Assembly (NCBI GenBank): GCA_052055015.1
Contig: JBQJIT010000047.1
Direction: 5' to 3' (one strand)
Source of the DNA: Malassezia furfur
Lineage: Eukaryota
DNA length: 41,468 bases
Position numbers and translations under genes: made by a program. Positions 2,483-26,990 of this stretch are shown in pieces (within the stretch, counting starts at the first letter, position 1; each line of letters opens with the position of its first letter). The notes beneath the pieces are model-generated. The model did no database searches and was not told the origin of the DNA. It worked only from the letters and a program-made list of their open reading frames with translations.

Positions 2483-4058
2483 CTACCAAGACACGCCCAG
2501 TGCGGCATAGGCGGCCCATACCAGCGCAACGCCGGCGACACATACGTGCATACGCGCGGCGCCTGCGCGCGCCTGCGCGTCCGACGGCGCCAGGTGCAGG
2601 CCGCTGGGCACTTGCTCCACCACGGGCGTCGGCAGCGTCGCAGACTGCGCGTCAGTGTCCAGCAGCTGCTCGGCACTCGACGCGACTGCCGTGGTCAATA
2701 ACGCGTCAGTTTTTGAGTGCGTCGCGATGCTCGTGAGCGGCGTGCGTGTGACGCCCTGCGTGGGCAACTGCGCAAAGCCCACGAGCGGCGGGTTGTAGCT
2801 AAACACGCTGTACACCGTTTTGAGGAACGAGTCGCCCATCACCCATGCAGGTGACGAGGACGACAGATGATCCGCGACAAATACGGCGCCGACACACCGG
2901 CTGCTGTCCGATGAGAGGCTGCCGAGGTTCAGCGTGTCGTTCGTTAGCACCCACGGGCGCTGGTTGAAGACGAGCGTCATGTTGAACTGCACGTCGCACG
3001 GAAAGGTATAATACTGCGCCAAGTCGCCCGAGCCTTGCTCTGCACCAGGCACCGAGTCGTACACCTGGGCGACCAACGCTGCAGGGCCGCCCAGCAACGT
3101 TGTGCCCGTATCGATCGAGGCCGAAGACTGGTTCCCCAGCTCGATCGGCTGACCATTTACCTTGAGTGCATCCATGTCGATGCCCCAGAACCCATTGCCA
3201 TGGGGGCCAAAAGTGTCCAGCACCGCGGACCAGCTGATCTCGCCGCGGAACTGGGTGCGATCAATTTTCCCCAGCGTCCATGTCCCGCCCGGCAGAATGT
3301 CGGTCTGGTTTTGGATGCTGTCGAGGTTGTTTGCGAGTTGGAAGGAAAAGACGGCGTCCTGCATCTTGCCAGTGGATGCCAATACCTCCCAGAATGGCAT
3401 GGTGCGCGACGTACTCAGTGTCTGGAAGCCCAGGCCCATGACGCCCGCCGCGGGCGGCGTCAGCGTGCGATCGCCTAGCCGGTTCGCTCGCGCAAAGGTC
3501 AAGTTCGCGACCTTGTACCCAGCGACTTGCACATCATCGGATACGAGTGTGCCGTCCACCTCGCCCACACCGTACTTGAGGTTGATCGTTGTGGAGCTCA
3601 CACGACTCGTGTTGCTGGCACTCGCATTGTAGCGCTGCAGATCTGAATCACATCCATCCGCGACGAGACACTGTGCATCTGCGAGCCAGAAGTCGGACGA
3701 GCCCGTATCGAGCACGACGTTGTATTCCTGCGCTGGCGTGCCAATGGCCAACCCGGCAAAATAGAAGCTGCGTGAGTGCATATGCATACCTGTCTGGGCC
3801 GTAATCGGCCAGGGAGGCCGTCTGACGCTCTTCATGCACATGCTCTTGTGCAGGTGCGTACCGCTCTCTCACACGCGTGGCCTCACGCCGAGCCCACGCA
3901 ACGAGCGCTTCGCCCTGCAGGCCATTGCGTGGATGCAAAGATCGACGATTGAGCCAGAGGGAGAGCGTCGTGTGGTTCTTGTCGGATACGGGTGTACCCT
4001 GCGCCATGACCAGCGCTAGCAGCGGCGCAAAGTACCACACCCATCCCCCAAGATGCAT
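2483..4058 (-). CDS. Secreted, probably GPI-anchored pepsin-family aspartyl protease, copy 1 (intron 3768-3789, 22 nt)
   Basis: Signal peptide and propeptide in ORF 3648..4058 join ORF 2483..3841 through GTATGC...CTCACGCAG; spliced length 518 codons. DTGS and DTGT catalytic motifs; hydrophobic C-terminus. Confidence 0.9.
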
Positions 4059-4279
4059 GGTACGAGCTGACAGTCGAGATCCCTCACGGATTCAGGGGTA
4101 TCCGATCCGCTCGGGGGTGCCGCCTCCGCGCGCAGTTACCTCCACCACCGATGTTTTGATTGGGTCCACCTGCATATTGTGGAGATGAGTGTTTATGCCA
4201 GGCGTCGGCGACCGTGCGCGGAGACAAAGGCCCCGGGCGGTGCTCGCACGCAACTACGAACAATGCACAAGTCAACGTC

Positions 4280-5941
4280 TTACAAAACAAAGGCGGCGGT
4301 CACCGTCGCAATGACCGCCGAGTACAGCACCAAATAGACACTGTAGGGCACCTGTACACCGTTGTCCTGGTTGCCGCCCAACCCGTAGGAGCGGAGCGAC
4401 GCGAGTGACTGGAAACCGGTCGGCACGCTTACGAGCGACGGTGTGGGCAGGCCGTTCCCGCCCAGCAAGCCCGTCTGTCGCGAGTGCACGGACGAGCTCG
4501 AAGTGAGCAGCGCACTGCTCGTGACACTGCCACCTCCCGCGAGCGACGTCGAGGCATCCGAGAAAGTCTCGCCCGACGTGATCGACGTCATCGGTAACGT
4601 CGACGCACCACCGGACGGCAGCGATGCAAAACCAACACGCTCTGGATTCCAACTGTACACGGAAAACACGGTGCGCAAAAACGTGTCGCCCAGAATCCAC
4701 GCAGGCATCGCCGAGTTCTGCGACTGCGGCGCGTCAAAGAGCGAGCTGATGCACATGTTGCTCCGGCTCGACAGGCGGCCCAGGTTCAGGTTTTCGTTGT
4801 CAAGCGTGAACTCTTTGCCGCCAAACGTCATCTTCAGCGTAAAGGGTTGCGTGCAGGGGTACATATAGTACCCCGAGCCGCCAAGCAGGTACGACGGCGC
4901 GGAGCGGACGCCGGGGATCTGGCTGTAGATCTGACGCAGGATGGACTGGGGGCCACCGATCAGCGTCGTGCCTGTGTCCACTGCGACGATGTTCTGCTGG
5001 TCGAGCTCGATTGTCTCGCCGTTCGCAACGAGTTTGTCCATGGTGATCGCCCAGTAGCCAATTCCCTGAGACCCGTACCCTTCAGTCAGGTCGACCCATG
5101 CAATGTCTCCTGTGTACTGCCGGTCGTCCAACACACCCAACGAAAACACACCACCAGGCACCACCTTGCTGGCCGAATCGCTCGAATCGGCCGACGCCAG
5201 CTGGAAGGAGAAGACGGGGTCCTTGACCTTGCCCTGGAGCGCGACCACCTCCCAGAACGGCGTACTCTCGCTCGAGGAAAGCGACTCAAAGCCCATGCCC
5301 ATCAGGCCGGACGCCGGCGGCTGGATGGTGCTTCCAGTCAACTGGCTCACGCGTCCAAATGTCAAACCATCCACCTGGTATTCGGCCATCGTCACGTCGT
5401 CGGCGCCCAACTTGCCAGACACCGTATTGGTGCCGTCGCCATAGGGCGTCAAAAAGGTGCGGTCGCTGCTGTTGAACGTCGAGCTTTTGGACGGGTCGTA
5501 AAGCGTCATCGACTCCGAGCAGCCCGTCAACTCCGAGCAGGACGCGTCGGCGATCCAAAAGTCGGACGATCCCGTGTCCATCAGCACATTCACGGTTGTC
5601 GACGGCGTGCCGATGCCGATCGGCATAAAGTAGAAGCTGTTCTGGCCATAGTTGCCGATGCCGACCAGCTGACGCGCGTGCTTCTTCGCATTCTTGTGCT
5701 TCCGCGTGCTGTTGTACTTGGCATTGAGAGCGTTGCGCTCGCGGTCCATCCACTGCACAAATGCATCACCTTCCAGGTTGCCGTTGCGCGGGTGGAGCGC
5801 CTCGCTGTTGCTGCGGATCGGCACCTGAATTCCGGTGCCCTCTGCACGATGTGCGCTCGGCGTGGGCGTCGGCTCCGCATTGGCAAACTGGCAAAGCAGC
5901 ACGGCCGCGCAAACGGCGCGTCCTACAAGTCCCGTCAGCAT
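4280..5941 (-). CDS. Secreted, probably GPI-anchored aspartyl protease, copy 2
   Basis: ATG at 5941 (MLTGLVGRAVCAAVLL), DTGSSD and DTGTT motifs, Ser/Thr-rich stalk, hydrophobic tail. Confidence 0.92.
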   Translation of the reverse strand: MLTGLVGRAVCAAVLLCQFANAEPTPTPSAHRAEGTGIQVPIRSNSEALHPRNGNLEGDAFVQWMDRERNALNAKYNSTRKHKNAKKHARQLVGIGNYGQNSFYFMPIGIGTPSTTVNVLMDTGSSDFWIADASCSELTGCSESMTLYDPSKSSTFNSSDRTFLTPYGDGTNTVSGKLGADDVTMAEYQVDGLTFGRVSQLTGSTIQPPASGLMGMGFESLSSSESTPFWEVVALQGKVKDPVFSFQLASADSSDSASKVVPGGVFSLGVLDDRQYTGDIAWVDLTEGYGSQGIGYWAITMDKLVANGETIELDQQNIVAVDTGTTLIGGPQSILRQIYSQIPGVRSAPSYLLGGSGYYMYPCTQPFTLKMTFGGKEFTLDNENLNLGRLSSRSNMCISSLFDAPQSQNSAMPAWILGDTFLRTVFSVYSWNPERVGFASLPSGGASTLPMTSITSGETFSDASTSLAGGGSVTSSALLTSSSSVHSRQTGLLGGNGLPTPSLVSVPTGFQSLASLRSYGLGGNQDNGVQVPYSVYLVLYSAVIATVTAAFVL

Positions 5942-6320
5942 CCAGGATCTTAAGACGGCCTGGCACGATCTAGTCGGAGCCAAAAAACAAGGTGGGTTGT
6001 GCACCTGCACTGCCGCGGAGGAAAGCGCACCCCGATGCCCACACCACGTGGCCCTCCACGCTGCTGAAGGCGCGAAGCACATAGCCATGCTTCGCAGCAC
6101 ACACCCACACGTTCAGTCTGCGACGAGGATTCCTTGACGGTGTCTATGCTGTATCTGTAGCTACGCTCGCCGTAGGCTTGTACAAAGCGCATGCGGTCTC
6201 CACAAGACATGGGGTGCACAATGCTTTTATTCCATTTTTCTTTGCGCAAGAGAGTACGGCACACAAGTTCCGATAGTGAGGCGAATGTACCGCTACACAA
6301 TGCACTTAAGTTGCACACAT

Positions 6321-6683
6321 TTAACCAAACATGCCGCCGGTCGAGCCGCCGCCCATGCCGGCCGACTGGCCGATGGCCTGCATCTGCTCGCCGACCTTCG
6401 CGTTCACGGCGAAGAACTTGGCGACGCAACTGAGGGGTGAGTACGACACACATACCGGTCGAGACAAACGCTCTCGCCCTTGTTGAGGTCGGGCTCAGCG
6501 TAGCGCGTGTTGATGCACTTGGTATGACACGCGTCGACCAGACGGTTGAAGACGTCCGTGATCATGTCGAGCTGCACATGTCAGTTTCACACATGGCCTA
6601 CACACTTCGGCAGTTGCGGCCTCGATCTGCGCCGAGTTTGCCGCGGCGGGCTGGCTACTTCCACCACCTCCGAAAAGCGGCAT
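6321..6683 (-). CDS. TIM10: Mitochondrial small TIM chaperone Tim10 (introns 6572-6605 and 6430-6455)
   Basis: Spliced product ...[25 protein letters not shown]...KGESVCLDRCVAKFF...; twin CX3C motif; 101 codons after removing 34-nt and 26-nt introns. Confidence 0.9.
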
Positions 6684-6848
6684 CTTGCTGTACGAAAACC
6701 AAGAGGCGTCGCCGACGACGAAGCGCTGACTAATCCTTGCCCGGGGGGCGCCGCGCCGCGAGCAGCGGATGGTGATCGGCGTAGAGCGTGTTCAACAAGG
6801 GAGGTCCATTTGGATTGTCTATGTCATAGTACAGAAAGTGTTTCTTGT

Positions 6849-8588
6849 TTACAATGCGAAGCACGCAACGAGCGTCGCGGCAACGAGCGAAATGAGCATG
6901 ACCGGTACACCGCCAGTCCTGCTCTGCGCGCTGTTGCCTCCTCCGAAAATTGAAAAGATGCCACCTCCGTCGCCCCCCAACTCGCTCGTGAGGCTCGCCC
7001 ACTGCGCGCTGTTGCGCACCGTAACTTGAGATACGCCGCCGCCAACGCCGCCATTCCAACCAGTCGGCAGCGAGCTGGGCGCACTCAACTTCTGCATCCC
7101 ACTGGGAACATCGATCAGCGTCGGCGTAGGAAGACCCTCGCCGCCCACGACGCCCGTCAACTGCATGCGTGAGCGCGACATGGGCTCTGAAATGCCACCG
7201 CCACCGCCGTTCGAGGCCGCTGCACTCGCGACCGTGTTTCCGCCGCTCGTCTCAGTGAGCGCCAGCGTCCGGGGGCCGTTCGATGGGAGCGACGCAAACC
7301 CGACGCGCTGCGGTTGCCAGCTGTACACCGAATACACCTTGCTCAAGAACGTGTCACCCAGAATCCATCCCGGTGTTGCTGATCCGGCCGGCGAATCGAC
7401 GACAAACAGTGCGCCGCCACACGTCTCGCGGCCCATGTCGACCTGGCCGATATTAATGTCGTCCTGGTTGAGCGTAAAAGCCTTGCCGCCGAACGTGAAC
7501 GCAATCTCAAACTTTTGCGAGCACGGGAACACATAGTAGCCCTGACCGCCAAACGTCGACGACGACGCAGGCTCTGCGTTCGGGATCTGGGCATAGACGG
7601 CCTCGACCACCGACTCAGGCGCGCCGATGAGCGTTGTGCCGGTGTCGACGGCGACAAGGTTGTGCTGTCCAAGGTTGATGTTTTGGCCATTGACTGAGAG
7701 TGCATCCATCTTGATACCCCAGTAGCCAATGCCCTTGGAGCCGTAGCGGCTATCGAGGTCAATCCACGTTATGTCGCCGGAGTACTGCTGGTCGTCGAGG
7801 TTGCCAAGCGTGAACACGCCACCGGCGGTCACTTGACCGGCCGACGAGTAGTCCGTGTTGTCCGTGAGCTCGAACGAGAACACGGGGTCCTTGAGCTTGC
7901 CTTCGATCGCGACCACCTGCCAAAACGGCGTTGAGCCACTGCTCGAGAGCGACTCAAAGCCCATGCCCATAATCCCCGACGCGGGCGGCTGGATCGTGCC
8001 CGAGGCAAGCTGCGTGGCAATGCCAAAGTTGAGCCCCGAGATCTTGTAGCCGGCCAGCGAGACATTGTCGGCACCCATCGAGCCACGGACACCGCCCTGG
8101 CCGTACGGTACCTCAAACTGCTGCTCGCTGCTCTGGTATGTCGAGCTGTCGGACGGCTCAAAGAGGTTCATGTTGTCGCATCCCGAGCACGACGTGCTCG
8201 CGATCCAAAAGTCGGCCGACCCCGTGTCGAGCACCACATTGTACGTCTTCTCGGGCGTCCCGAGACCGATCTGCGAAAAGTAGAAGCCACCGAGGTTCAC
8301 GCTGCCGAGCGGCGCAGCCTGGCGCGCGTGCATCTTGTTGCGGTTATTGCCCCGGTTCTTGTTGCCATGCTTCGAGTACTTGTTGGTCACATGCGTGCGC
8401 TCGCGCTGCATCCACTGCAATAACGCGTCGCCTTGCAAGTTCTTGTTACGTGGGTGCGGCAAATCCCGGTCGACCAGGATCGGCAGGCGAATCCCTGGCG
8501 AGGTGGTAGGCGCAGCAGATTGCGTGGGCGACGGCGCGGCGATGCCACTCGCAACCAAAGAAGCCAGCACGAGTAGGAGGCACCGCAT
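6849..8588 (-). CDS. Secreted, probably GPI-anchored aspartyl protease, copy 3
   Basis: ATG at 8588 (MRCLLLVLAS), DTGSAD and DTGTT motifs, Gly/Ser-rich stalk, hydrophobic tail. Confidence 0.92.
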   Translation of the reverse strand: MRCLLLVLASLVASGIAAPSPTQSAAPTTSPGIRLPILVDRDLPHPRNKNLQGDALLQWMQRERTHVTNKYSKHGNKNRGNNRNKMHARQAAPLGSVNLGGFYFSQIGLGTPEKTYNVVLDTGSADFWIASTSCSGCDNMNLFEPSDSSTYQSSEQQFEVPYGQGGVRGSMGADNVSLAGYKISGLNFGIATQLASGTIQPPASGIMGMGFESLSSSGSTPFWQVVAIEGKLKDPVFSFELTDNTDYSSAGQVTAGGVFTLGNLDDQQYSGDITWIDLDSRYGSKGIGYWGIKMDALSVNGQNINLGQHNLVAVDTGTTLIGAPESVVEAVYAQIPNAEPASSSTFGGQGYYVFPCSQKFEIAFTFGGKAFTLNQDDINIGQVDMGRETCGGALFVVDSPAGSATPGWILGDTFLSKVYSVYSWQPQRVGFASLPSNGPRTLALTETSGGNTVASAAASNGGGGGISEPMSRSRMQLTGVVGGEGLPTPTLIDVPSGMQKLSAPSSLPTGWNGGVGGGVSQVTVRNSAQWASLTSELGGDGGGIFSIFGGGNSAQSRTGGVPVMLISLVAATLVACFAL

Positions 8589-8752
8589 GCTGTCGGGATG
8601 GCGGTTGAGGGCAGCGCAACGCCAAGACTTCGCACGCAAAAGGGCCCCCTGGCAGCCCACGTGGCATTGTCAGGGGTTGAGCTCCGCGAGGACGGCATCC
8701 CTGTTATGACTAAGCACAGAGTAGTGAGGGGTGGCGCAGCTACGCCGTCAAC

Positions 8753-10347
8753 CTAGCATACAAGAGCATAAGCAATCAATGCCATGGCCAGCAGCGTAGC
8801 TTGCACAATCGGCACACGTCCCATCTGATGCGGGGCATCATTTTGACTGCCAGAGGCTGTCGAGGTGCCAGAGGGAAGCGAACTGGGTACACTGAGCTTG
8901 CCCATCCCACTGGGCACCTCGGCGAGCGCCGGCGTCGGCAGCGAGCGTGGCCCTGATTCCGACATACTCCCATTGCCTCCATTCGCTGTCGTTGCACCTG
9001 AAGTTGCTCTGTGACTTTGTGTGGAGCTCAGCGCAAGCGTCTTGGGGCCATTTTTGGGGAGCGACGCAAACCCAACGCGTTGTGGCTCCCAGCTGAACAC
9101 GGAAAACACCTCGCTCAAAAAGACGTCGCCCAAAATCCACGCGTTCGTTTGGTTGTCTGTCGGGTACACCACCGACGCAAATCCGCTGACACACGTTGAG
9201 GTGGTCTTATTGAAAGAGCCAATGTTGAGCTGGTCCTGGTTCAGTGTGAATGCACGGCCCCCAAACGTGAAGGCCACCTCAAACTGCTCTGAGCAGGGGA
9301 ATACATAATACGTGGCAAAATCGTCATCCCGCTTCTCGCCCTCCGCCGAGGATGCCAGCGTGGAATTGGGGATCTGTTCATGAAACGCCTTGGCGACTGC
9401 TGGAGGGGCACCAATGAGCGACGTGCCGGTATCAACCAGGACTAAGTTGTTCGAACCCAATGGGACGTCTGAACCATCGAGAGAAAGTGCATCCATCTTG
9501 ATACCCCAGAACCCTTTGCCCTTGGAATCGTAACGACTGTCCAGGTCCATCCACGTAATCTCGCCAGAATACTGCTGGCTATCGAGAGTGCCGAGCGTGA
9601 ACACACCACCTGGGACCATCTCATTCGCCTGCGACTGGTTTGTATTGACCTTGAGCTCGAATGAAAACACGGGATCTTGAACCTTGCCCTCAGCCGCCAC
9701 GACCTGCCAAAACGGTGTCACATGGTTGTCCGAAAGCGATTCAAAGGCTAGGCCCATAATTCCGGATGTGAGCGATGTATCATTCCTCGTTCCTGGTACA
9801 ACGCAAAAGTTCAAACCAGCGACCTTATAATTCGCTAACGAGACATTGTCGGCGGCCATCTACCTTGGTTGCCGAGGTACGTAATTCTCGTCGTACGATT
9901 GCTCGGCTAATATGTCGAACTTTTTGACGGATCAAAAAGTTTCACGGTGCAATCCGTGCAAGGTCGAGTCTCGACCCAGAAATCGGCGGAGCCGGAATCG
10001 AGCATTACGTTGTAAAGCTCCTCTGGCGTTCCGATGCCGACTTGCGCATAATATCGCCCACTAAGGACTATATTTCCAAGCGGCGCCGTTTGGCGTGCAC
10101 GCAATTTTGCCTCCCCTTTGTTATGATATTTGGCATACTTCCTGTGTAAATAGTTACGTTCGTTCTCCATCCATTGCCGTAAGGCCTCGCCTTGCAGGTT
10201 CTTGTTGCGCGGATGCGGCACTTCCCGATCAAACAGGATCGGTAGGCGGATACCTGGTGATTCAGATGGATTGGCAGACTGTGCCACGGATGACACAGCA
10301 ACGACGTTCGCGATCAGAGAAATCAGCACGATCAGAGAGTACTTCAT
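8753..10347 (-). pseudogene. Aspartyl protease copy 4, disrupted by an in-frame TAG (9907-9909) and a frameshift near 9860
   Basis: ORF 9907..10347 (signal peptide, DSGSAD) and ORF 8753..9859 (DTGTS, GPI-like tail) are two halves of a close paralog of copy 3. The total span is not a multiple of 3, and I found no intron that repairs both lesions while keeping conserved residues. Confidence 0.75.
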
Positions 10348-17732: not shown

Positions 17733-19235
17733 ATGGACGCGCTGCGCGCGTACGTCGCTGCGCTGCCGGAAGCGCGGGGGAGCGGCGATGCGCTCGCGTC
17801 GATGTACGCGGATCTCGGCGGGCAGCGCGCGTCGGACCCGAATGCGTTCCGCACCAAGGTCGACTGGTGGTCGCGCACGCTCCGCGACATTGCGTGGCAC
17901 GGGCTTGTGACCAACGCCCTCAGCCTCGCGCTCGACGACGCGCTGTTGACGGGACTTGCACGCCCGTCGACGGGGCGCCCCATGTGTGTCGCGGTCGTCA
18001 TGGTACGCTGGGGTACTCACGTAGGAGGAACTCGTGCGCCAGCGCCGCGCGATGCGCCGCGCCGACTTTCTCGGCCAGACGACGCCGGTGCACCACCGCG
18101 CGCCGCTCTCGCGCGTGCTGTGGGAGTGGGTCGCGCAGCCCATATGGCGCACGGCGTCCAGCGCATGGCACGAGAGTGACGCGCTCGGTGACGAGGACGC
18201 GTGGCGCCGCATGCACGGCGAATGGGTGCTGCTGGACAATGTCGAGGTGCGTCGCCCTTACTCACGCAGCAAGCTGCCCAGCTGTTCCGCGACGCGGCGG
18301 CACAGCGCACGCACGGGGTGCTCGACAGTGTGCTGTCGCGCACCGAGCTGCACGCGCAGTTTGCGGCACTGCGCGACGCACATGGCCACCCGCGCCTGAC
18401 GCCGGCAGACTGTGCAGTGCTCGAGCGCTACCTGGAGCGCGACGAGGGGGTGCTGGTCACCGAAGGCGACCTCGTCAAGCTCGTGGCGCATGGTGCGCCG
18501 CGCACCGTGAGCGAGGCGGACCGCGGCGTGTTTTCCGTGCGCGAAATGCACCGCAAACTCACCGCGCAGGTCGACGAGCTCGAGGCGCGCGTCCAGCAGG
18601 CGCACGCGCGTATCGTGCAAGCGCTGCGCACCAAGCAGCCCGAGGCGAGTGCCAAGGCGTACCTGCGCACCAAGAAGCAGCTTGAGGAGCTGCTGACGAA
18701 GCGCGTGGGGGCGCTCGAGACGGTGCATTCGCTGCTGCTCCAGATGGAGCAGGCCGTGGGCGATGCAGAGATCGTGCGTACCTATGAGACGTCGGCAGCG
18801 ACGTTACGTACGATCCTGGCCGACCCTGCGCTGCAGCCCGCACGCGTCGATGCGACGATGGACGCGCTGGCCGAGTCGGTGGAGCAGAGCGACGAGGTGC
18901 ATGCGACGCTGACGAGTCATGCAGCGCCGGTGGACGACGACGAAATTGCGCACGAGCTCGAGCAGCTGGCACTGGACGCGCGGGACGAACAGGCCGAGCA
19001 GGCCGAGGCGGCCGAGGCGCCGCCCGACGTGGCCAAGCAGCCCGAGGCAGCCAAGCAGCCCGAGATGACCCAACAGTCCGAGCCGGCCAAGCAGCCCGAC
19101 GTGGCCCAGCAGCCCGAGGCCAAAGACCTCGCAGCGATGCGCTCGCTGCCCTCTGCCCCGCAGCATACACCGTCGGAGTCCGAGCCACGGCGTATGGCAG
19201 AACGCGTAGCGACTACAGAAGCGAGTGGAAAATAA
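17733..19235 (+). CDS. CHMP7: CHMP7/Chm7-like ESCRT-II/III hybrid protein (introns 18003-18024 and 18247-18269)
   Basis: N-terminal ASMYADL...FRTKVDWW winged-helix-like region plus Snf7 domain (AKAYLRTKKQLE...); 486 codons after splicing. Confidence 0.8.
19027..19122 (+). repeat. Degenerate 18-nt coding tandem repeat (xAKQPE units) in the CHMP7 C-terminus
   Basis: GCCAAGCAGCCCGA recurs, encoding DVAKQPEAAKQPEMTQQSEPAKQPDVAQQPEAK. Confidence 0.7.
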
Positions 19236-19844
19236 AGTACAAGAGGAGCACCACACAGAACCCTGCGATCGCGAGGATGCGGGTGTTGCGCCACCACATC
19301 TGCCGCCGGAGCCCCACGGCGCGCCGGCGGAACGCGAGGCTCTGGTGGGCGGCCGAGTCGGTGCGGTCCATGAGCAGCTCGATCTGCTCGCCACGGCTCA
19401 GGATTTTCTCGACGTTTTGCGTGAGCACGTCCTTGACGCTCCCGAGCTCGGCCTGGGCGCGGCGAATCGGGTCCGATTCGGGCGCCTCGTTGAACTGCGC
19501 ACGGAGCGCGTCGAGGCGCGCCTGGAAATCCGACGAGGGCGCGGCGGTGTACTGCGGCGGTGTGAGCGACGATGCGTCAAACGTACCTCCTTCTCGAGCT
19601 GTGTGAGGAACGCAAACGGGATGCGACGCCCCAGCTCGGCGTCGGCGACCGCCAGGTAGACGTAGCCGTCGTGCGCCACGTAGTGGAAGAGCCACGACTC
19701 AAACGCGTACGAGAGGCGCTCGGCCTTGTCGGCATCGATCTTGTGTAGGATGGTCTGCGCGGCGCTGAGGAAGCGCGCGTGCTCCGCGTCGTGCGACGCG
19801 ACCACCACGCGGGGGCCCTGCGCAACGAGCGCCAGCACGATCAT
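19213..19844 (-). CDS. VAMP7: Longin R-SNARE, VAMP7-like (intron 19552-19586)
   Basis: Longin domain (RLSY...FHY...GRRIPFAFL), SNARE motif (VKDVLTQNVEKILSRGEQIELL) and C-terminal TM; 199 codons; overlaps the CHMP7 3' end by 23 nt. Confidence 0.88.
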
Positions 19845-19921
19845 CGTGGCGCGATCACGTGGCGTCCGCGGAGATACCCGTGCGGGTCGGCGCGGGGGGT
19901 TGCGGGTGGCTGCCGACGAGC

Positions 19922-22777
19922 ATGAGCGACCCCGAGAGCCCTGTCCGCCGGCGTGCGTCGCGTTTGCTGAGCCACTGGCTTCCGCACAAGTCGCATAGTC
20001 GGACACGCCACAGTGGCCGCGACTCGGACCGTGCCAGTGAGCGCAGTGAGCGCAGCGATCAGCGCGAAGAAGAGCGCGAGCGCAAGCTCGAAGAGCAGCG
20101 CGAGTTTGAGCGCCAGGTGCAGCTGCGCCGCCGCCTGTCCGAAGAGCGCGCCATGCGCGAGGAGACGCCCGAGGAGCGCTCGCGCTACGGCACCAGCACG
20201 CTGTGGGCCGTCGAGGAGCACCCACTCGACGCGATGATCGACCTCGAGACTGCGAACGAGGCGGCGCGCAACGACCCTGCGATGCTCGACCAGCTCGCTG
20301 GTTCGACGCGCCGCTTCCGCGGGCGCATCCATGTGATGCGCCCGCTCGGCCCGCACCTCGTGTTCATGGTGCTGCGCGACCAGAGCATCACGCTGCAGAC
20401 GGTGCTCTCGGAGAAGAAGGGCGGTATGACGACGCACATGATGCACTGGGCGCGCCGGCTGCACACCGAGTCGCTTGTGACGGTGCAGGGTGTGCTGCAG
20501 CGCCCCCACGACGTGATCACGGGGTGCTCCATCACGCACCTCGAGCTGCGCGTGACGCACCTGTACCTCATCTCGGCGACCATTGAGCAGCTGCCGTTCA
20601 GCGTGTACGCGGCGGAGCGCAGCTCGTGCCACGCGCTCGAGGAGCATGCGGACCTCGACAAGGACAGTGCAGACCACTCCAGCACGGACCACACGAGCGA
20701 GCGCGACATGGACCACGGCCCGATCATTACGATGCGTACGCGGCTCAACAACCGCCTGGTGGACCTGCGCACGCCCACGGCGCAGGCCATCTTCCGCGTG
20801 CAGTCGGCTGTGTGCACGGCGTTCCGGCAGTACCTCATGGGACAGAGCTTCATCGAGATCCACACGCCCAAGCTGCAGGGCGGCGCCTCGGAGAGTGGCT
20901 CGAGCGTGTTCCAGGTGGGCTACTTTGGGCGCTCGGCGTTCCTGGCGCAGAGCCCGCAGCTGTACAAGCAGATGTGCATCGCCGCGGACATGAAGCGCGT
21001 GTTTGAGATCGGGCCCGTGTTCCGCGCCGAGAACAGCAACACGGCGCGCCACATGACCGAGTACACCGGTCTGGATCTCGAGATGGAGGTGAACCACTAC
21101 TACGATGCGATGCGCGTCATCGACGGCATGCTCAAGCACATCTTCACCGTGCTCAAGACCGAGTGCGGCGACCTTGTCAACACCGTGCGCCAGGCGTTCC
21201 CGAGCGGCGAGCTCGTCTGGCTCGAAGAGACGCTCGTGCTGCCCTTCCCGGAGGGCGTGCGCATGCTCCGCGAGGCCGGCTACCGCGAGGAGGACGGCAG
21301 CGAGCCGAGCGAGTTTGAGGACCTCGCGACGCGCGCCGAGGTGCGCCTCGGCCAGCTCGTCAAGGAGAAGTTCGGCACGGACTACTACATCCTCGACAAG
21401 TTCCCCGCGGCCGCTCGTCCCTTTTACACGCTGCCGGACGAGCACGACTCGCGCCGCACCAACTCGTTCGACATCTTTGTGCGCGGCCAGGAGATCTGCA
21501 CGGGTGGCCAGCGTATCCACAACGCAGAGGTGCTCGAGGACCGCATCCGCGAGCTCGGCATCGATGCGCACAGCCTCGAGGAGTACCTCGAGGGCTTCCG
21601 CCTCGGCGCGCCGCCGCACGCGGGCTGCGGTATTGGTCTCGAGCGCTTCGTGATGCTCTACCTCAACCTGGACGACATTCGCCTCGCCTCGCTCTTCTAC
21701 CGCGACCCCAAGAGCTTCGCGGTGAAGAAGCGCACCGAGCTCCGCCACCCGGAGGCGAGCACCCACCCGCCGCCATGGCGCCACCGCCAGGACCCCCACG
21801 CACCCGCGGAACTCGACTCGCTGCAGCCGCTCGTGAAGCTGATCGCCAACTACGGCGACTCGTCCAATACCTCTTGGCTCGACGACCGCTTCAAGGTGTG
21901 GCGCGACGAGGAGACGGGCGCCGCGCAGGGCTACTCGGTGCGCCGCAGCTACGCACTGATCGTCGGCAACCCGCTGTGCGACGCGTCGCAATACTCGCGC
22001 GTGATCACGCGCTTCCTGCAATACCTCAAGCACAAGTCGCTCTATCCCGTCTGGCTCATGGCCGGCGAGCCCGTGGAGCAGATCCTCGGCGGCCGCCAGG
22101 GCTGGTGCACGCTCACCTGCACGGCCGACCAGCGCCTGCCGGACGTCAGCAAGAACGACGCGCGCCACGACCCGGAGACGCAGCGCAAGATCCGCCACGC
22201 ACACAAGGTCGGCGTCACCGTGCAAGAGGTGCCGCTCGTCCAAGAGGTGCCGAAAGACGTCATCGAGGAGTGCAACGAGCGGATCAAGGCGTGGCAGGCG
22301 AGCCGCAAGGGCACCCAGGTGCACCTCACCGACGTGCACCCGTGGGTCGACCAGGAACACCGCAGCTACTTTATCGCCCGCGACGAGAACAAGACGGTGT
22401 GCTGCATGGTGGTCCTGGCGCAGCTCTCGCCGGAACACGGGTACCAGGTGAAGTGGGCCATGAGCTTCCCGGACGCGCCGTCGGGCGCGATCGAGCTCAC
22501 CATCTTCAAGGCGCTCGACTCGATCGGGTCGTCCCCGGCCACGTTTGGCACCGCCGCGACACCCAAGCTGCGCGCTGTGTACGGCCTGAGCGGTATCGCG
22601 TTCAAGGTGCTCTCGCGCATCTACGAGAATGTCGTGGAACGTACACACCTGCTCAACAAGGGCGAGTTCCGCGAAAAACTCGGTACGATCAACGACCCAA
22701 CGTACGTGTGCTACCCCAAGGGCGGCCTGTCGATGCTCGGCGTGCGCGACATTATCGACTTCTTCCGCGACCAGTAA
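19922..22777 (+). CDS. erdS: Aspartyl-tRNA synthetase-DUF2156 fusion; ergosteryl-3beta-O-L-aspartate synthase
   Basis: OB-fold, FIEIHTPKL, AQSPQLYKQ, FRAENSNTARH and GCGIGLERF (AspRS), followed by about 300 aa of DUF2156-like transferase (NYGDSSNTSWLD, IVGNPLC, YQVKWAMSFPDAPSGAIE, FREKLG). First ATG at 19922. Confidence 0.88.
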   Translation: MSDPESPVRRRASRLLSHWLPHKSHSRTRHSGRDSDRASERSERSDQREEERERKLEEQREFERQVQLRRRLSEERAMREETPEERSRYGTSTLWAVEEHPLDAMIDLETANEAARNDPAMLDQLAGSTRRFRGRIHVMRPLGPHLVFMVLRDQSITLQTVLSEKKGGMTTHMMHWARRLHTESLVTVQGVLQRPHDVITGCSITHLELRVTHLYLISATIEQLPFSVYAAERSSCHALEEHADLDKDSADHSSTDHTSERDMDHGPIITMRTRLNNRLVDLRTPTAQAIFRVQSAVCTAFRQYLMGQSFIEIHTPKLQGGASESGSSVFQVGYFGRSAFLAQSPQLYKQMCIAADMKRVFEIGPVFRAENSNTARHMTEYTGLDLEMEVNHYYDAMRVIDGMLKHIFTVLKTECGDLVNTVRQAFPSGELVWLEETLVLPFPEGVRMLREAGYREEDGSEPSEFEDLATRAEVRLGQLVKEKFGTDYYILDKFPAAARPFYTLPDEHDSRRTNSFDIFVRGQEICTGGQRIHNAEVLEDRIRELGIDAHSLEEYLEGFRLGAPPHAGCGIGLERFVMLYLNLDDIRLASLFYRDPKSFAVKKRTELRHPEASTHPPPWRHRQDPHAPAELDSLQPLVKLIANYGDSSNTSWLDDRFKVWRDEETGAAQGYSVRRSYALIVGNPLCDASQYSRVITRFLQYLKHKSLYPVWLMAGEPVEQILGGRQGWCTLTCTADQRLPDVSKNDARHDPETQRKIRHAHKVGVTVQEVPLVQEVPKDVIEECNERIKAWQASRKGTQVHLTDVHPWVDQEHRSYFIARDENKTVCCMVVLAQLSPEHGYQVKWAMSFPDAPSGAIELTIFKALDSIGSSPATFGTAATPKLRAVYGLSGIAFKVLSRIYENVVERTHLLNKGEFREKLGTINDPTYVCYPKGGLSMLGVRDIIDFFRDQ

Positions 22778-22832
22778 GCCACGTGCGCTGGGGAAGCAAT
22801 TCGCCGCGCACCCGGGACGCACCCGCCTCCAC

Positions 22833-23871
22833 ATGACGCCCTCCATCTTGGTCGTGGGGGCCGGTGCGGTCGGCGCGTTCTATGCAAGCCGCTTTGATCG
22901 GGTACGTAGCCATGCCAGGGCCATTCCTTATATAGCAATCGGCGCATGTCGCCCTGGTATGCCGCTCGAACTATGACGCCGTGAAACGCGATGGATTCTC
23001 CATGAAGACGCACAGCTTTGGAGACTACACCTTCTCTCCGGACGCCGTATATGCGTCGGTGGACGAGGCGCGCGACCAGCCGTGGGACTACGTCGTCGTC
23101 GCGACCAAGGCACTCAACCTCACTACGGACGCCGCCTCGTTCATCGCGCCTGTCGTCTCGGAGCGCACGACCATCGTCCTGATCCAGAACGGGCTGGACG
23201 TCGAGGCACCGTACCGCGAGCGCTTCCCGGACGCCCCGATCGTGTCGGCCATCACGATCAGCAGCATCGAGCTCACCCAGCCGTCCGAGGTCGTGCAGTA
23301 CCGCTGGACCCGCATCTCGCTTGGACCATACACGGACCGCTACGGCCACGCCAACGACGACGCACAGCGCCGCCTGTGCGAGCGCGGAACGGCCAGCAGC
23401 ACCGAGCTCGCCGAGATCTGGCAGCGCGGCGGCATCCGCGACACCGAGACCTACGATGCACTCGGCATCCAGCTCGTCCGCTGGCACAAACTCAGCATCA
23501 ACGCCTCGATGAACGTCTCGGGCGTGCTCGCGGGGTGCCTCGGAAACGACGCCATGACGCAGGACCCGTTCCTGCGCGACCACCTCGAGGCGTGCATGCA
23601 CGAGGTGCTTGATGCCACCCCGAAAATCTACGGCGTGCCGCTCCCGGATAAGTTTGCGACGCCCGAGGCCATCATCCGCAGCACCGAGCGCAACAAGAAC
23701 AGCCGCTCAAGCATGGTCCAGGACTGGCTCGCGCATCGCCCGATCGAGCTGCAGGCCATCCTCGGCAACGGGCTCCGCGTCGCTCAGGAGCACGGCGTTG
23801 TCATGCCGCGCCTTGCGACCATGTACGCGCTGCTGCAAAGTGCCTTCCAAGTTCACATGGCTGCTACGTAG
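22833..23871 (+). CDS. Ketopantoate reductase (ApbA/PanE)-family oxidoreductase (intron 22902-22935)
   Basis: ILVVGAGAVG, DYVVVATKAL, LIQNGL, RWHKLSINAS and SSMVQD motifs; 335 codons. Confidence 0.88.
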
Positions 23872-25217: not shown

Positions 25218-25257
25218 CAGGGTGGAGGCCGTGCGCACGCCGTAGCGAAGAAAAACG

Positions 25258-26990
25258 ATGTGGAGCTTGCAGGGCCGCGCCGGCGGCGCGTCGTGGGCGC
25301 GTGCGGTGAGCGCCGCGGTTGGGGGCCGGCGGTGGGTATCGAACAAGCCGTACTATGTGACGACGCCCATCTTTTATGTGAACGCTGAGCCGCATATCGG
25401 GCACCTGCACTCGGACGTGCTTGCCGACGTGCTGTGCCGCTACCAATCGCTGCGTACCGGCGGATGGTCGCGCAACGCGGACGGCGTGTACCCGCCGCCA
25501 ACGCGTGCACAGCTCGCCACGGGCACCGACGAGCATGGGATGAAGGTGCAGCGCGTCGCCGAGTCGCAGAACGTGTCGCCGCGCGCGTTGTGTGACCGCG
25601 TGAGCCAGCGCTTCCAGGCACTCGCCGACGAGGCCAACATTGCGTACACGCGGTTCATCCGCACCACGGACGCGGACCATTCCGTGGCCGTCACAGCCTT
25701 TTGGGTACGTCGCACGCCCCCGGACTCACCCAGCAAACGCTCGTGGACCGCGGATACGTGTACCTCGGCAAGCACGAGGGGTGGTACGCCGTGTCCGACG
25801 AGGCGTTCTACCCCGACGCGCAGGTGCAGCAGGTCACGCGCAACGGCGAGACCTGGCACGAAAGCATCGAGACGGGCCAGCGCGTCGAGTGGACCGCGGA
25901 GACGAACTACAAGTTCCGGCTGTCGGCGTTCCAGGCGCCGCTGCTCGCGTGGCTCGAGGCGAACCCGCGTGCGGTGCAGCCGCGCGGGATGTACGAGCGG
26001 GTGCTGAGCGAGGTGCGCGAGGGCCTGAGCGATCTGTCGATCTCGCGTCCCCGCGCGCGCCTGCACTGGGGCATCCCCGTGCCGAACGACGCAGAGCACA
26101 CCATGTATGTGTGGGTGGACGCCCTGATCAACTACCTCACGGCCGTGGGGTACGCGGGCGGCGCCCCCCCGCCCGCGTGGCCGGCGGATGTGCATGTGGT
26201 CGGCAAGGACATTGTGCGCTTCCACGCGATTTACTGGCCGGCGCTGCTGATGGCCGCGGGGCTGCCGTTACCGCGCACGGTCGTGGCGCATGCACACTGG
26301 ACCGTGGAGCGGTCCAAGATGTCCAAGTCGCGCGGCAACTCGGTAAACCCGTTCGAGGCACTTGCCAAGTACGGCACAGATACCATCCGGTGCTTCCTGA
26401 TGCGCGCAGGGGGCAATATCTCGTCGGACGCCGATTACTCCGAGGCGCAGCTGCAGGAGTTCCAGCGCAAGTACCTGCAGGGCCAGCTGGGCAACCTGCT
26501 CTCGCGAGTGCTCGCGCCCAAGATCCAGGCGCGGCTCGTGGCGCATGCGGCATCCGACGCGGCGCTCGCCGCGCCGCAGCTCGTCGAGGACGATGTGGCA
26601 CTCACGTCGGCCATCGCCGCGCTGCCCTCGCGCTTCGATGCGCACATGGACGCGTTTGAGCTGAGCCGCGCGCTGCAGGCCGTGTTCGAGGTGCTGGCGC
26701 TCACGAATGAGTACGTGCAGCGTGCCGCGCCGTGGTCGCCCGCGACGCCCGTGGACGGCGTGCACCGCGCCGTGCACCTCGCGTGCGAGGCACTGCGTGT
26801 GAGCGGCGTGCTGCTGCAGGCGATCATGCCCGACGCCATGACGCGCCTGCTCGACGCGCTGCAGGTCGCGCCCGCCGAGCGCACGTTTGCGGCGCTCCTC
26901 GGCGCAAACGGCGTGTGGACGACGCGCACACACACGCCGGTGCGCGCGGGGGCGGCCAAGATTGCGCCCTTGTTTCCTCGCGTCCCATAG
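25258..26990 (+). CDS. MSM1: Mitochondrial methionyl-tRNA synthetase (intron 25705-25733)
   Basis: Presequence-like N-terminus, YVTTPIFYVNAEPHIGH, TGTDEHG, GKDIVRFH, KMSKS; 568 codons. Confidence 0.93.

Follow-up and report, generated by a model that had tools for sequence, protein, structure and literature searches.

A probable Malassezia orthologue of the ergosteryl-aspartate synthase ErdS with an acidic clamp segment and no adjacent erdH

In a 41-kb stretch of Malassezia furfur DNA (hereafter the window), we found a gene that, judging from its sequence, very probably encodes the Malassezia orthologue of ErdS, the ergosteryl-3beta-O-L-aspartate synthase. The gene is intact and the encoded protein looks functional; Malassezia ErdS belongs to the described enzyme family as an unexceptional member that has been inherited vertically. 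Work on ErdS and Erg-Asp has dealt with Aspergillus, Neurospora and Magnaporthe, and S. cerevisiae lacks ErdS. A full-text search found no literature that names Malassezia together with ErdS, and the words 'Malassezia', 'Ustilago' and 'Cryptococcus' do not occur in the text supplements of PMC8913301 and PMC13219428. The discovery of ErdS is described in PMC7334510, and the mechanistic and mutant data that we draw upon below come from sections 10-14 of PMC13219428. We infer that the protein is expressed and that the yeast would produce steryl-aspartates; particular sterols are suggested as its substrates by analogy with the characterised enzyme.

Reading frame, domains and functional residues

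The ORF listing contains a 951-aa frame that runs from ATG to stop and fills positions 19922..22777 (+) exactly, with zero interruptions. This intronless CDS (951 aa plus stop) is supported by the ORF and by a full-length alignment to the cryo-EM chain 9w9f in the PDB, in which query residues 36-950 lie on chain residues 60-947 with an E value of 8e-272, so a chance match is of no concern. (Note that the records of the chains matched, 9w9f, 9w9e and 9w9g, are titled 'Aspartate--tRNA ligase, cytoplasmic'. Because the alignment numbering fits every residue named in PMC13219428, 9w9f is taken to be the A. fumigatus (Afm) ErdS of that paper, and 9w9e and 9w9g likewise.)

The N-terminal extension (residues 1-125; 19922..20296, +) contains the segment that aligns to the tRNA-elbow clamp helices of A. 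fumigatus ErdS. It is followed by the OB-fold anticodon-binding domain of the AspRS part (residues 126-231; 20297..20614, +), which was placed with PF01336 and the 9w9f alignment and is 50-79% identical within Malassezia; the Pfam match to residues 132-214 (E 0.0012, 19.1 bits) falls under the gathering score. An acidic, His-rich hinge insertion, seen as a block in the alignment, occupies residues 232-268 (20615..20725, +). The class II AspRS catalytic domain (residues 269-598; 20726..21715, +) is recognised both by PF00152 (tRNA-synt_2, residues 271-593, E 1.2e-74) and by the NCBIfam model for archaeal/eukaryotic AspRS, TIGR00458 (415.9 bits; cutoff, 368.4). Among the AspRS columns that are invariant in 19 aligned ErdS proteins are Q343-S344-P345-Q346, F367-R368-A369-E370 and G568/G570/G572/E574/R575, and the domain as a whole is 77-93% identical within Malassezia.

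A linker (residues 599-640; 21716..21841, +), delimited by the 9w9f alignment and 52-62% identical within Malassezia, joins the AspRS to the aminoacyl-tRNA transferase (ATT/DUF2156, double-GNAT) domain (residues 641-951; 21842..22774, +). PF09924, LPG_synthase_C, is the former DUF2156. It matches residues 647-869 (E 9.2e-10) with 38.5 bits, above the gathering score of 27.5, which is the outcome hoped for when an earlier note on this DNA, made from the letters alone, proposed a DUF2156 HMM search. The transferase domain of 9w9f is matched in the alignment by residues 641-950, which are part of the same single ORF as the AspRS. The position given for the transferase in the earlier note, about 21820-22777, agrees with the extent obtained here, which is ~21860-22530 by Pfam and, when the solved ErdS is used as the guide, 21842-22774. 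Between Malassezia orthologues, identity in the transferase domain is 62-84%, and against other fungi in the alignment it is 47-60%, which argues that both halves of the fusion are under constraint.

In the transferase domain, the CCA-pocket and catalytic residues listed in sections 10 and 13 of PMC13219428 are identical to those of Afm ErdS at nine of nine positions. In particular, W791, R795, K796, G797, Q799, H801, F916, R917 and K919 correspond to Afm W785, R789, K790, G791, Q793, H795, F913, R914 and K916, and the proposed general base, His801, is encoded by codon 22322-22324 (+). In the alpha(+) helix between the GNAT folds, R755/K756/R758/H759 correspond to Afm R749/K750/R752/R753, so that three of the four basic residues are identical; the R-to-H change (R753H) is found in 15 of the 19 aligned ErdS. 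Comparison of the 16 residues that PMC13219428 lists for the sterol pocket at the GNAT I/II interface gave 11 identities, three conservative changes (T641S, E731D and E798D) and two non-conservative ones (S642N and E712P). (E712, C728 and E731 were located manually in the 9w9f alignment.) All five pocket residues for which mutation has been measured to lower activity (S644, W645, D647, Q836 and K838) are identical. Moreover, T641S, S642N, R753H and E798D are found in most ErdS from outside Aspergillus, with S642N present in 16 of the 19 aligned proteins and in both phyla, and no Malassezia-specific pocket substitution was found among these 19. Together with the end-to-end alignment to the characterised A. 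fumigatus enzyme, the retention of the functional residues bears out the earlier reading of this ORF as an in-frame AspRS-DUF2156 fusion of the ErdS type.

If the Malassezia protein works as the Aspergillus enzyme does, its AspRS half would activate aspartate and charge tRNA-Asp, after which this tRNA would swing its 3' end into the double-GNAT transferase domain at the C-terminus. In that domain, His801 (Afm H795) would deprotonate the 3beta-OH of a sterol that sits between GNAT I and GNAT II, at their interface, the aspartyl group would move from A76 to the sterol, and Arg917 (Afm R914) would stabilise the transition state. Removal of the aspartate, if any, would have to fall to an unlinked gene. 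(The string 'aspart' was not found in passages of a Malassezia lipidome study, PMC7374198, which did not look for lipids of this kind.)

The closest named orthologues among the matches listed come from Malassezia obtusa (82%), M. psittaci (80%), M. vespertilionis, M. pachydermatis and M. caprae, in keeping with the earlier view that the organism is a lipid-dependent yeast. At least 22 clusters are 60-100% identical to the window protein, six of them bearing Malassezia names, and the orthologues span 94-100% of the query length. Every one of the best 120 homologues listed is an AspRS-DUF2156 fusion, and the name 'ergosteryl-aspartate synthase' is attached to one of these 120. The named Malassezia orthologues, six of six, are called aspartate-tRNA ligase, as had been anticipated when mis-annotation of the window gene was judged probable. 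Such database names mask ErdS function, and the annotation of Malassezia genomes should keep erdS apart from the housekeeping AspRS.

Gene neighbourhood and the ErdH family

Upstream of erdS and divergent from it lies a two-exon gene for a VAMP7-like R-SNARE (~19216-19844, -) with Longin (PF13774, 2.7e-15) and Synaptobrevin (PF00957, 2e-25) domains; the 77-bp intergenic region between the two start codons (19845..19921) was read directly from the sequence. Downstream is a ketopantoate-reductase-like (ApbA) gene with one short intron (~22833-23871, +; PF02558 8e-24, PF08546 9.4e-24), whose ATG sits 55 bp past the erdS stop. The Pfam matches on both sides confirm the two neighbours proposed previously, and the VAMP7-ErdS-ketopantoate-reductase order is kept in three divergent Malassezia-like contigs (L001-L003), in which ErdS is only 63-66% identical.

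The gene divergent from erdS is, in many ascomycetes, erdH. At the window locus no Abhydrolase_3-type hydrolase lies directly upstream on the opposite strand. Of the window's stop-to-stop ORFs with a length of 110 aa or more, 192 in all, none gave an alpha/beta-hydrolase Pfam match at E <= 1e-4, and tblastn with 45 ErdH-family queries (12 + 31 + 2) returned nothing in the window or in L001-L003. The claim that the window contains no alpha/beta-hydrolase thus holds, and so does the absence of erdH from the locus, but the idea that this absence is an unusual trait does not: among 39 other fungal erdS loci with at least 2.5 kb of upstream sequence, an adjacent ErdH is missing in 23 and present in 16. 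Unlinked erdS is common, not special, and 'interspaced' cases are already flagged in the Fig. 6 legend of PMC7334510 (2020).

To delimit the ErdH family, we took the gene that recurs, in metagenome loci, on the divergent side of erdS; the catalytic triad of the family, S156/D278/H308 in the numbering of metagenome locus L004, lies near the published S153/D277/H307. Among the best 120 ErdH profile matches listed, four are named 'putative ergosteryl-3beta-O-L-aspartate hydrolase' by their sources, the named matches belong to the Ascomycota except for a single record that carries the name of a plant, Carpinus fangiana, and none bears a Malassezia name. A search of representatives gave 548 ErdH representatives at E <= 1e-30. 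Thirty of the best 150 of these 548 were looked up, and they were from Lentinula, Tulasnella, Saitoella, Savitreella, Rhizophlyctis, lichen fungi, Penicillium, Lophium and a Sordariomycete paralogue clade, with no Malassezia name among the 30. ErdH-like proteins exist in Tilletia (T. caries), Tulasnella and Lentinula. Two possible leads to a Malassezia ErdH come from the literature, namely a gene of M. pachydermatis called 'arylacetamide deacetylase' (PMC12722467) and a SAY1 homologue that PMC7374198 describes in six Malassezia strains. (Note that one Malassezia ErdH candidate, P0322, picked by its amino-acid composition, was rejected; its nearest relatives are lichen-forming ascomycetes and none of the 62 matches listed for it is from Malassezia. 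The composition heuristic is weak, and a Xylariaceae protein scored as high.)

The N-terminal clamp and alternative readings

According to section 14 of PMC13219428, N-terminal helices of A. fumigatus ErdS clamp the tRNA elbow, and deletion of the clamp (xSKxxLKKxx) decreases Erg-Asp synthesis by 12- to 18-fold. The window protein does not have a basic N-terminal helix with this motif. Its clamp-aligned segment (residues 36-62) carries a net charge of -3, and what remains is the Ser and three of the contact positions only (R44, R48 and E49, equivalent to Afm K65, R69 and E70). The net charge of the segment ranges from -4 to 0 in seven of seven Malassezia proteins and from +2 to +6 in 11 of 12 other ErdS. 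Because the ErdS of Magnaporthe oryzae is also described in PMC13219428 as being without the xSKxxLKKxx motif, we do not regard the motif as a strict criterion for ErdS. The motif in the window protein is degenerate and the segment net acidic, and efficiency or tRNA sequestration may therefore differ. With its genus-wide loss of the basic clamp, Malassezia provides a naturally occurring variant on which the 2026 'entrapped tRNA' model can be tested. The hinge insertion has a different distribution: in the alignment it is shared with Violaceomyces, Sporisorium and Pseudozyma (Ustilaginomycotina), Auricularia carries one too, and it is absent from the ascomycete ErdS; identity in the hinge region outside Malassezia is 3-14%.

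In a rival reading, the fusion would supply Asp-tRNA for translation in the reduced Malassezia genome, either in addition to another AspRS or as the sole one, with loss of the clamp easing release and with sterol aspartylation as a side activity. Consistent with this idea, truncation of the clamp region of A. fumigatus ErdS bettered complementation of a yeast dps1 deletion, that is, made Asp-tRNA release easier (PMC13219428, section 14), and the named Malassezia orthologues are annotated as plain aspartate-tRNA ligases. Those names, however, are automatic, and according to PMC7334510 and PMC13219428 a separate canonical AspRS is present in every ErdS-bearing fungus examined there. (The 41-kb window is a tiny fraction of the genome, so the fact that a second AspRS is missing from it says nothing.) A housekeeping role would also have to be squared with a transferase domain whose catalytic residues are fully kept; because the domain and these residues are fully conserved, the sterol activity is clearly under selection. 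We consider a dual-duty or sole AspRS very unlikely, and we think it less likely still that the protein is an ErdS-like enzyme whose substrate preference has shifted to, for example, host cholesterol, other skin sterols or a non-sterol acceptor. Such a shift would fit with the in vitro promiscuity of A. fumigatus ErdS, whose acceptors include ergosterol, cholesterol and numerous further 3beta-OH sterols (PMC13219428, section 12), with growth on sebum that contains cholesterol and cholesterol esters (PMC7374198), and with the non-conservative changes at two of the 16 pocket residues. One of these two, S642N, is nevertheless the majority state, none of the pocket substitutions is specific to Malassezia, and the ergosterol pathway is reported in Malassezia genomes by PMC7374198, so the normal substrate is available. 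That the gene is a decaying or inactive relic, kept merely as an ORF, strikes us as extremely improbable: the partner hydrolase is unlinked, as might be expected of a relic, but nothing interrupts the frame of 951 codons, every catalytic residue is retained, and the catalytic and transferase domains retain the high identities given above among Malassezia orthologues that have otherwise diverged.

We thus favour the reading of the window gene as a genuine erdS. A more far-reaching proposal, to which we assign a low probability, is that Malassezia runs sterol aspartylation differently, with a synthase that has no basic clamp and perhaps with no dedicated hydrolase, such that steryl-aspartates (including cholesteryl-aspartate made from host sebum) would pile up without turnover; in a bolder version, the declamped ErdS would serve as the cytosolic AspRS as well. 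If this were true, steryl-aspartates at the skin interface could affect the charge of the membrane, tolerance to antifungals or recognition by the immune system. The 'absent removal' of aspartate and the aspartylation of host sterol, both raised in the earlier note, are speculation. Since the niche is rich in cholesterol and the Aspergillus enzyme accepts it, lipid analysis could reveal aminoacylated host sterols, which this human skin commensal might make.

Comparison with known systems

Like MprF and LysX, the window protein contains a PF09924 transferase fed by aminoacyl-tRNA, and LysX (LysRS-MprF) is also fused to a class IIb synthetase. Unlike these proteins, it has no membrane flippase domain, and the acceptor of ErdS is a sterol rather than a glycerolipid; moreover, section 11 of PMC13219428 describes the sterol pocket of ErdS as different from that of bacterial aminoacyl-phosphatidylglycerol synthases. 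The LysX model NF002821 scored 78.7 bits against a cutoff of 742, through the synthetase part only, and no other Pfam domain was found in the window protein. With a score so far under the cutoff and no membrane part, an MprF/LysX identity was rejected. ErgS, the ergosteryl-3beta-O-glycine synthase (PMC8913301), belongs to the same transferase family and uses the same sterol 3beta-OH acceptor. It is, however, a free-standing DUF2156 protein that uses Gly-tRNA from a separate GlyRS, and it is essentially confined to Ascomycota (PMC8913301). An ErgS identity was rejected because ErgS is no fusion, whereas the domain in the window is fused to an AspRS in one ORF.

Closer relatives are the ErdS proteins of Violaceomyces, Sporisorium, Pseudozyma, Ustilago and Testicularia, which are 53-56% identical to the window protein over 94-100% of its length and share its Pfam architecture and hinge insertion. 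These other Ustilaginomycotina proteins differ from it in their net basic clamp (+3 to +4 in the three aligned) and longer N-termini. Three features separate the Malassezia gene from that of A. fumigatus: the clamp segment is acidic or neutral, with a degenerate xSKxxLKKxx motif; the hinge carries the 37-residue acidic, His-rich insertion; and, where A. fumigatus has the erdS/erdH pair, the divergent neighbour 77 bp upstream is a VAMP7-like gene. The two proteins nevertheless have the same order of domains, from N-terminal extension through OB fold, class II AspRS core and linker to the double-GNAT transferase.

Architecture, conservation and annotation of the Malassezia ErdS

The ORF listing contains erdS as a single ATG-to-stop ORF of 951 aa at 19922..22777 (+), exactly the limits assigned to it in the earlier note. 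In a Pfam scan, the class II D/K/N synthetase core (PF00152) covered ErdS residues 271-593 (E 1.2e-74) and LPG_synthase_C (PF09924, formerly DUF2156) covered residues 647-869 at 38.5 bits, where the gathering score is 27.5, in agreement with the DUF2156-like C-terminal domain of the earlier note; an OB-fold match (PF01336) on residues 132-214 was weak and under the cutoff (19.1 bits). Among NCBIfam models, TIGR00458, the equivalog for archaeal/eukaryotic AspRS, matched the synthetase half with 415.9 bits (cutoff 368.4). (Note that P0001, a database entry of 965 aa that is 100% identical, stems from a gene call beginning at an upstream in-frame GTG (19880-19921), which is a prokaryote-style gene-calling artefact; the eukaryotic start codon is the ATG at position 19922, and M1 is conserved in 19/19 aligned orthologues.)

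A search of PDB sequences with the window ErdS returned chains 9w9f, 9w9e and 9w9g (E 8e-272), with an unbroken alignment of residues 36-950 to chain positions 60-947. The deposits are titled only 'Aspartate--tRNA ligase, cytoplasmic'; we treat them as A. fumigatus ErdS because the alignment numbering fits every residue that the 2026 cryo-EM paper names (PMC13219428). The mutagenesis described there was mapped on the PDB alignment and checked on a 19-sequence ErdS alignment. All nine CCA-pocket and catalytic residues (A. fumigatus W785, R789, K790, G791, Q793, H795, F913, R914 and K916) are identical, H795 being the proposed general base (PMC13219428), as are all five activity-lowering sterol-pocket positions (S644, W645, D647, Q836 and K838). 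Among the 16 sterol-pocket residues that the paper lists, 11 are identical, 3 conservative and 2 different (S642N and E712P), S642N being the majority state in ErdS of both phyla. In the alpha(+) helix, three of four basic residues match, with His in place of the fourth as in 15/19 aligned ErdS. No Malassezia-specific substitution was found among the mapped residues in the 19-sequence alignment. Thus, the Pfam and NCBIfam domains, the PDB alignment and the functional residues agree on the ErdS-type AspRS-DUF2156 fusion first proposed from the sequence.

In the protein database, named Malassezia orthologues are 82% (M. obtusa), 80% (M. psittaci), 69% (M. vespertilionis), 67% (Malassezia sp.), 65% (M. 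pachydermatis) and 63% (M. caprae) identical to the window ErdS, and 15 further clusters lie at 60-78%. Identity falls to 53-56% in other Ustilaginomycotina and to 46-52% in ascomycetes and Agaricomycotina, a ranking which places the window in a Malassezia species and shows erdS to be vertically inherited. Within Malassezia, identity is 77-93% over the catalytic core and 62-84% over the transferase domain (47-60% for the latter against other fungi). These per-domain identities show both halves to be constrained, with purifying constraint acting on each domain. The suspicion that such a gene would pass for the housekeeping AspRS was borne out for its relatives: all six named Malassezia orthologues are labelled aspartate-tRNA ligase, and only 1 of the 120 matches listed (P0109, a JGI name) is called ergosteryl-3beta-O-L-aspartate synthase. 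The same database includes full-length ErdS from many Lecanoromycetes and lichen-forming fungi, including Lasallia, Hypocenomyce, Mycoblastus, Lepraria and Lecanora (P0032, P0035, P0043, P0046, P0058, P0095 and others); the 2020 paper, by contrast, counts Lecanoromycetes among the lineages without ErdS (PMC7334510).

Gene neighbourhood and linkage to ErdH

Every stop-to-stop ORF of 110 aa or more in the window (192 in total) was translated and compared with Pfam. Upstream of erdS lies a divergent (-) VAMP7-like R-SNARE gene (Longin plus Synaptobrevin) and downstream an ApbA/ketopantoate-reductase-like gene (+), the neighbours named in the earlier note. Both spacers are extremely short, with 77 bp (19845-19921) between the VAMP7-like start codon and the erdS ATG, and 55 bp (22778-22832) between the erdS stop and the ketopantoate-reductase-like ATG. 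ARAGORN found no tRNA genes in the 41-kb window, so that erdS has no linked tRNA-Asp gene. Farther away are a class I methionyl-tRNA synthetase gene at 25246-26987 (+), whose two ORF pieces match PF09334 profile positions 1-108 and 105-391 and are presumably parted by a short intron, and four eukaryotic aspartyl-protease genes (PF00026) in tandem at 2486-10347 (-), which have the look of a secreted-protease family expanded locally; the fourth, in pieces at 8756-9859 and 9910-10347, is probably split by an intron.

To identify ErdH, 80 erdS loci were taken from metagenome contigs and their flanking ORFs clustered. The largest conserved neighbour family (17 loci, always upstream on the opposite strand) belongs to Abhydrolase_3 (PF07859), has invariant Ser156, Asp278 and His308 (numbering of one metagenome locus, L004) at positions 1-3 residues off the published A. 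fumigatus ErdH triad of S153/D277/H307 (PMC7334510), and as a profile gave, among the matches listed, four that are source-named 'putative ergosteryl-3beta-O-L-aspartate hydrolase'. On these three grounds we take the family to be ErdH. The claim that no ErdH lies beside erdS holds for the whole window: none of the 192 ORFs matched an alpha/beta-hydrolase Pfam family, and tblastn with 12 neighbour-family proteins, 31 further ones (including basidiomycete sequences) and 2 of Tilletia type found no ErdH there.

The same gene order (SCA7, helicase, Snf7, VAMP7, ErdS, KPR, HLH, MetRS, GST) recurs on three Malassezia-like metagenome contigs (L001-L003, with the methionyl-tRNA synthetase gene in the same place) whose ErdS shares just 63-66% identity with that of the window, and none of them has ErdH within 10 kb either side of erdS. 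The lack of a linked ErdH is therefore old and genus-wide rather than peculiar to this genome. Missing linkage is commonplace, not unusual: where the sequence upstream of erdS extends for 2.5 kb or more, a divergent ErdH is present at 16/39 loci (absent at 23), and where it extends for 5 kb or more, at 13/29 (absent at 16), proportions that are rough because the set contains several near-duplicate loci; ErdH follows erdS at none of the 36 loci that have 2.5 kb or more on the downstream side. Species with erdS and erdH 'interspaced' are already marked in the legend to Fig. 6 of the 2020 paper (PMC7334510). In the lichen-forming Candelaria pacifica (P0216, from the ErdH-profile search), ErdS and ErdH carry locus tags only 3 apart, and both records give 408,173 bp as the longest contig.

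Beyond the window, the named ErdH-profile matches among the 120 listed were all from Ascomycota, except one Carpinus fangiana (plant) record; a search seeded with a compositionally biased ErdH candidate led to lichen fungi. An exhaustive representative search gave 548 representatives at E <= 1e-30, and among the 30 examined were Lentinula raphanica and two Tulasnella species (Basidiomycota), Saitoella and Savitreella (Taphrinomycotina) and a chytrid; none of these 30 was from Malassezia. The Tilletia caries protein P0267 (Ustilaginomycotina) reaches 403 bits with the ErdH profile and keeps the family motifs; ErdH-like genes are thus present in the subphylum to which Malassezia belongs. As leads towards a candidate ErdH that is unlinked, a gene survey records a SAY1 homologue, but no ATF2, for six Malassezia strains (PMC7374198), and a M. 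pachydermatis variant table has an 'arylacetamide deacetylase' gene (PMC12722467); both names belong to one and the same hydrolase superfamily. The chytrid Rhizophlyctis rosea has an ErdH-family protein (P0302, 326 bits), although reports of ErdS are confined to Dikarya; either P0302 is a paralogue, perhaps, or the hydrolase family may predate the synthase.

Predicted activity and comparison with known ErdS enzymes

This analysis establishes the domain architecture, the gene context, constraint on both domains, and homology to an enzyme known from structure and biochemistry, whose functional residues are conserved. By analogy with the Aspergillus work, the AspRS half would activate aspartate and charge tRNA-Asp, the tRNA 3' end would then move into the GNAT II pocket, and His801 would deprotonate the sterol 3beta-OH to yield a steryl-3beta-O-aspartate. 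Because the Aspergillus enzyme takes cholesterol (along with many other 3beta-OH sterols; PMC13219428) and the pocket is conserved, it is chemically plausible that Malassezia ErdS could act on host cholesterol.

ErdS was described across Dikarya, including Ustilago and Cryptococcus, in 2020 (PMC7334510). We found no paper in the indexed literature that links Malassezia to ErdS or AspRS, and the ErdS papers PMC7334510, PMC8913301 and PMC13219428 contain the word 'Malassezia' 0 times. The window gene is a further ErdS orthologue, in a genus without ErdS discussion in the indexed literature; the remaining points of note are its declamped N-terminus, the ErdH question in Malassezia and the skin-lipid niche.

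A second, minor difference from the Aspergillus enzyme is an acidic, His-rich insertion of 37 residues (232-268; 20615-20725, +) at the hinge between OB fold and catalytic core, which the aligned ascomycete ErdS lack, whereas the other aligned Ustilaginomycotina and Auricularia also have one there.

The main difference concerns A. fumigatus residues 59-102, basic helices with an xSKxxLKKxx motif that clamp the tRNA elbow and whose removal reduced Erg-Asp synthesis by a factor of 12 to 18 while improving Asp-tRNA release for translation (PMC13219428). With 8 Lys/Arg and 11 Asp/Glu, the aligned segment of the window ErdS (residues 36-62) carries a net charge of -3. This charge lies between -4 and 0 in 7/7 Malassezia ErdS (the window ErdS, with residues 1-62 at 19922-20110, and P0002, P0003, P0006, P0008, P0011 and P0017) and +2 to +6 in 11/12 others. 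On this alignment, the basic clamp motif has been lost genus-wide in Malassezia. Three clamp contact positions are kept (A. fumigatus K65, R69 and E70; window R44, R48 and E49), and residues 1-35, further upstream, form a basic stretch of net charge +5. Loss of the motif is no bar to ErdS membership, since Magnaporthe ErdS likewise lacks it (PMC13219428); tRNA retention and efficiency in the Malassezia enzyme may nevertheless differ from those of its Aspergillus counterpart.
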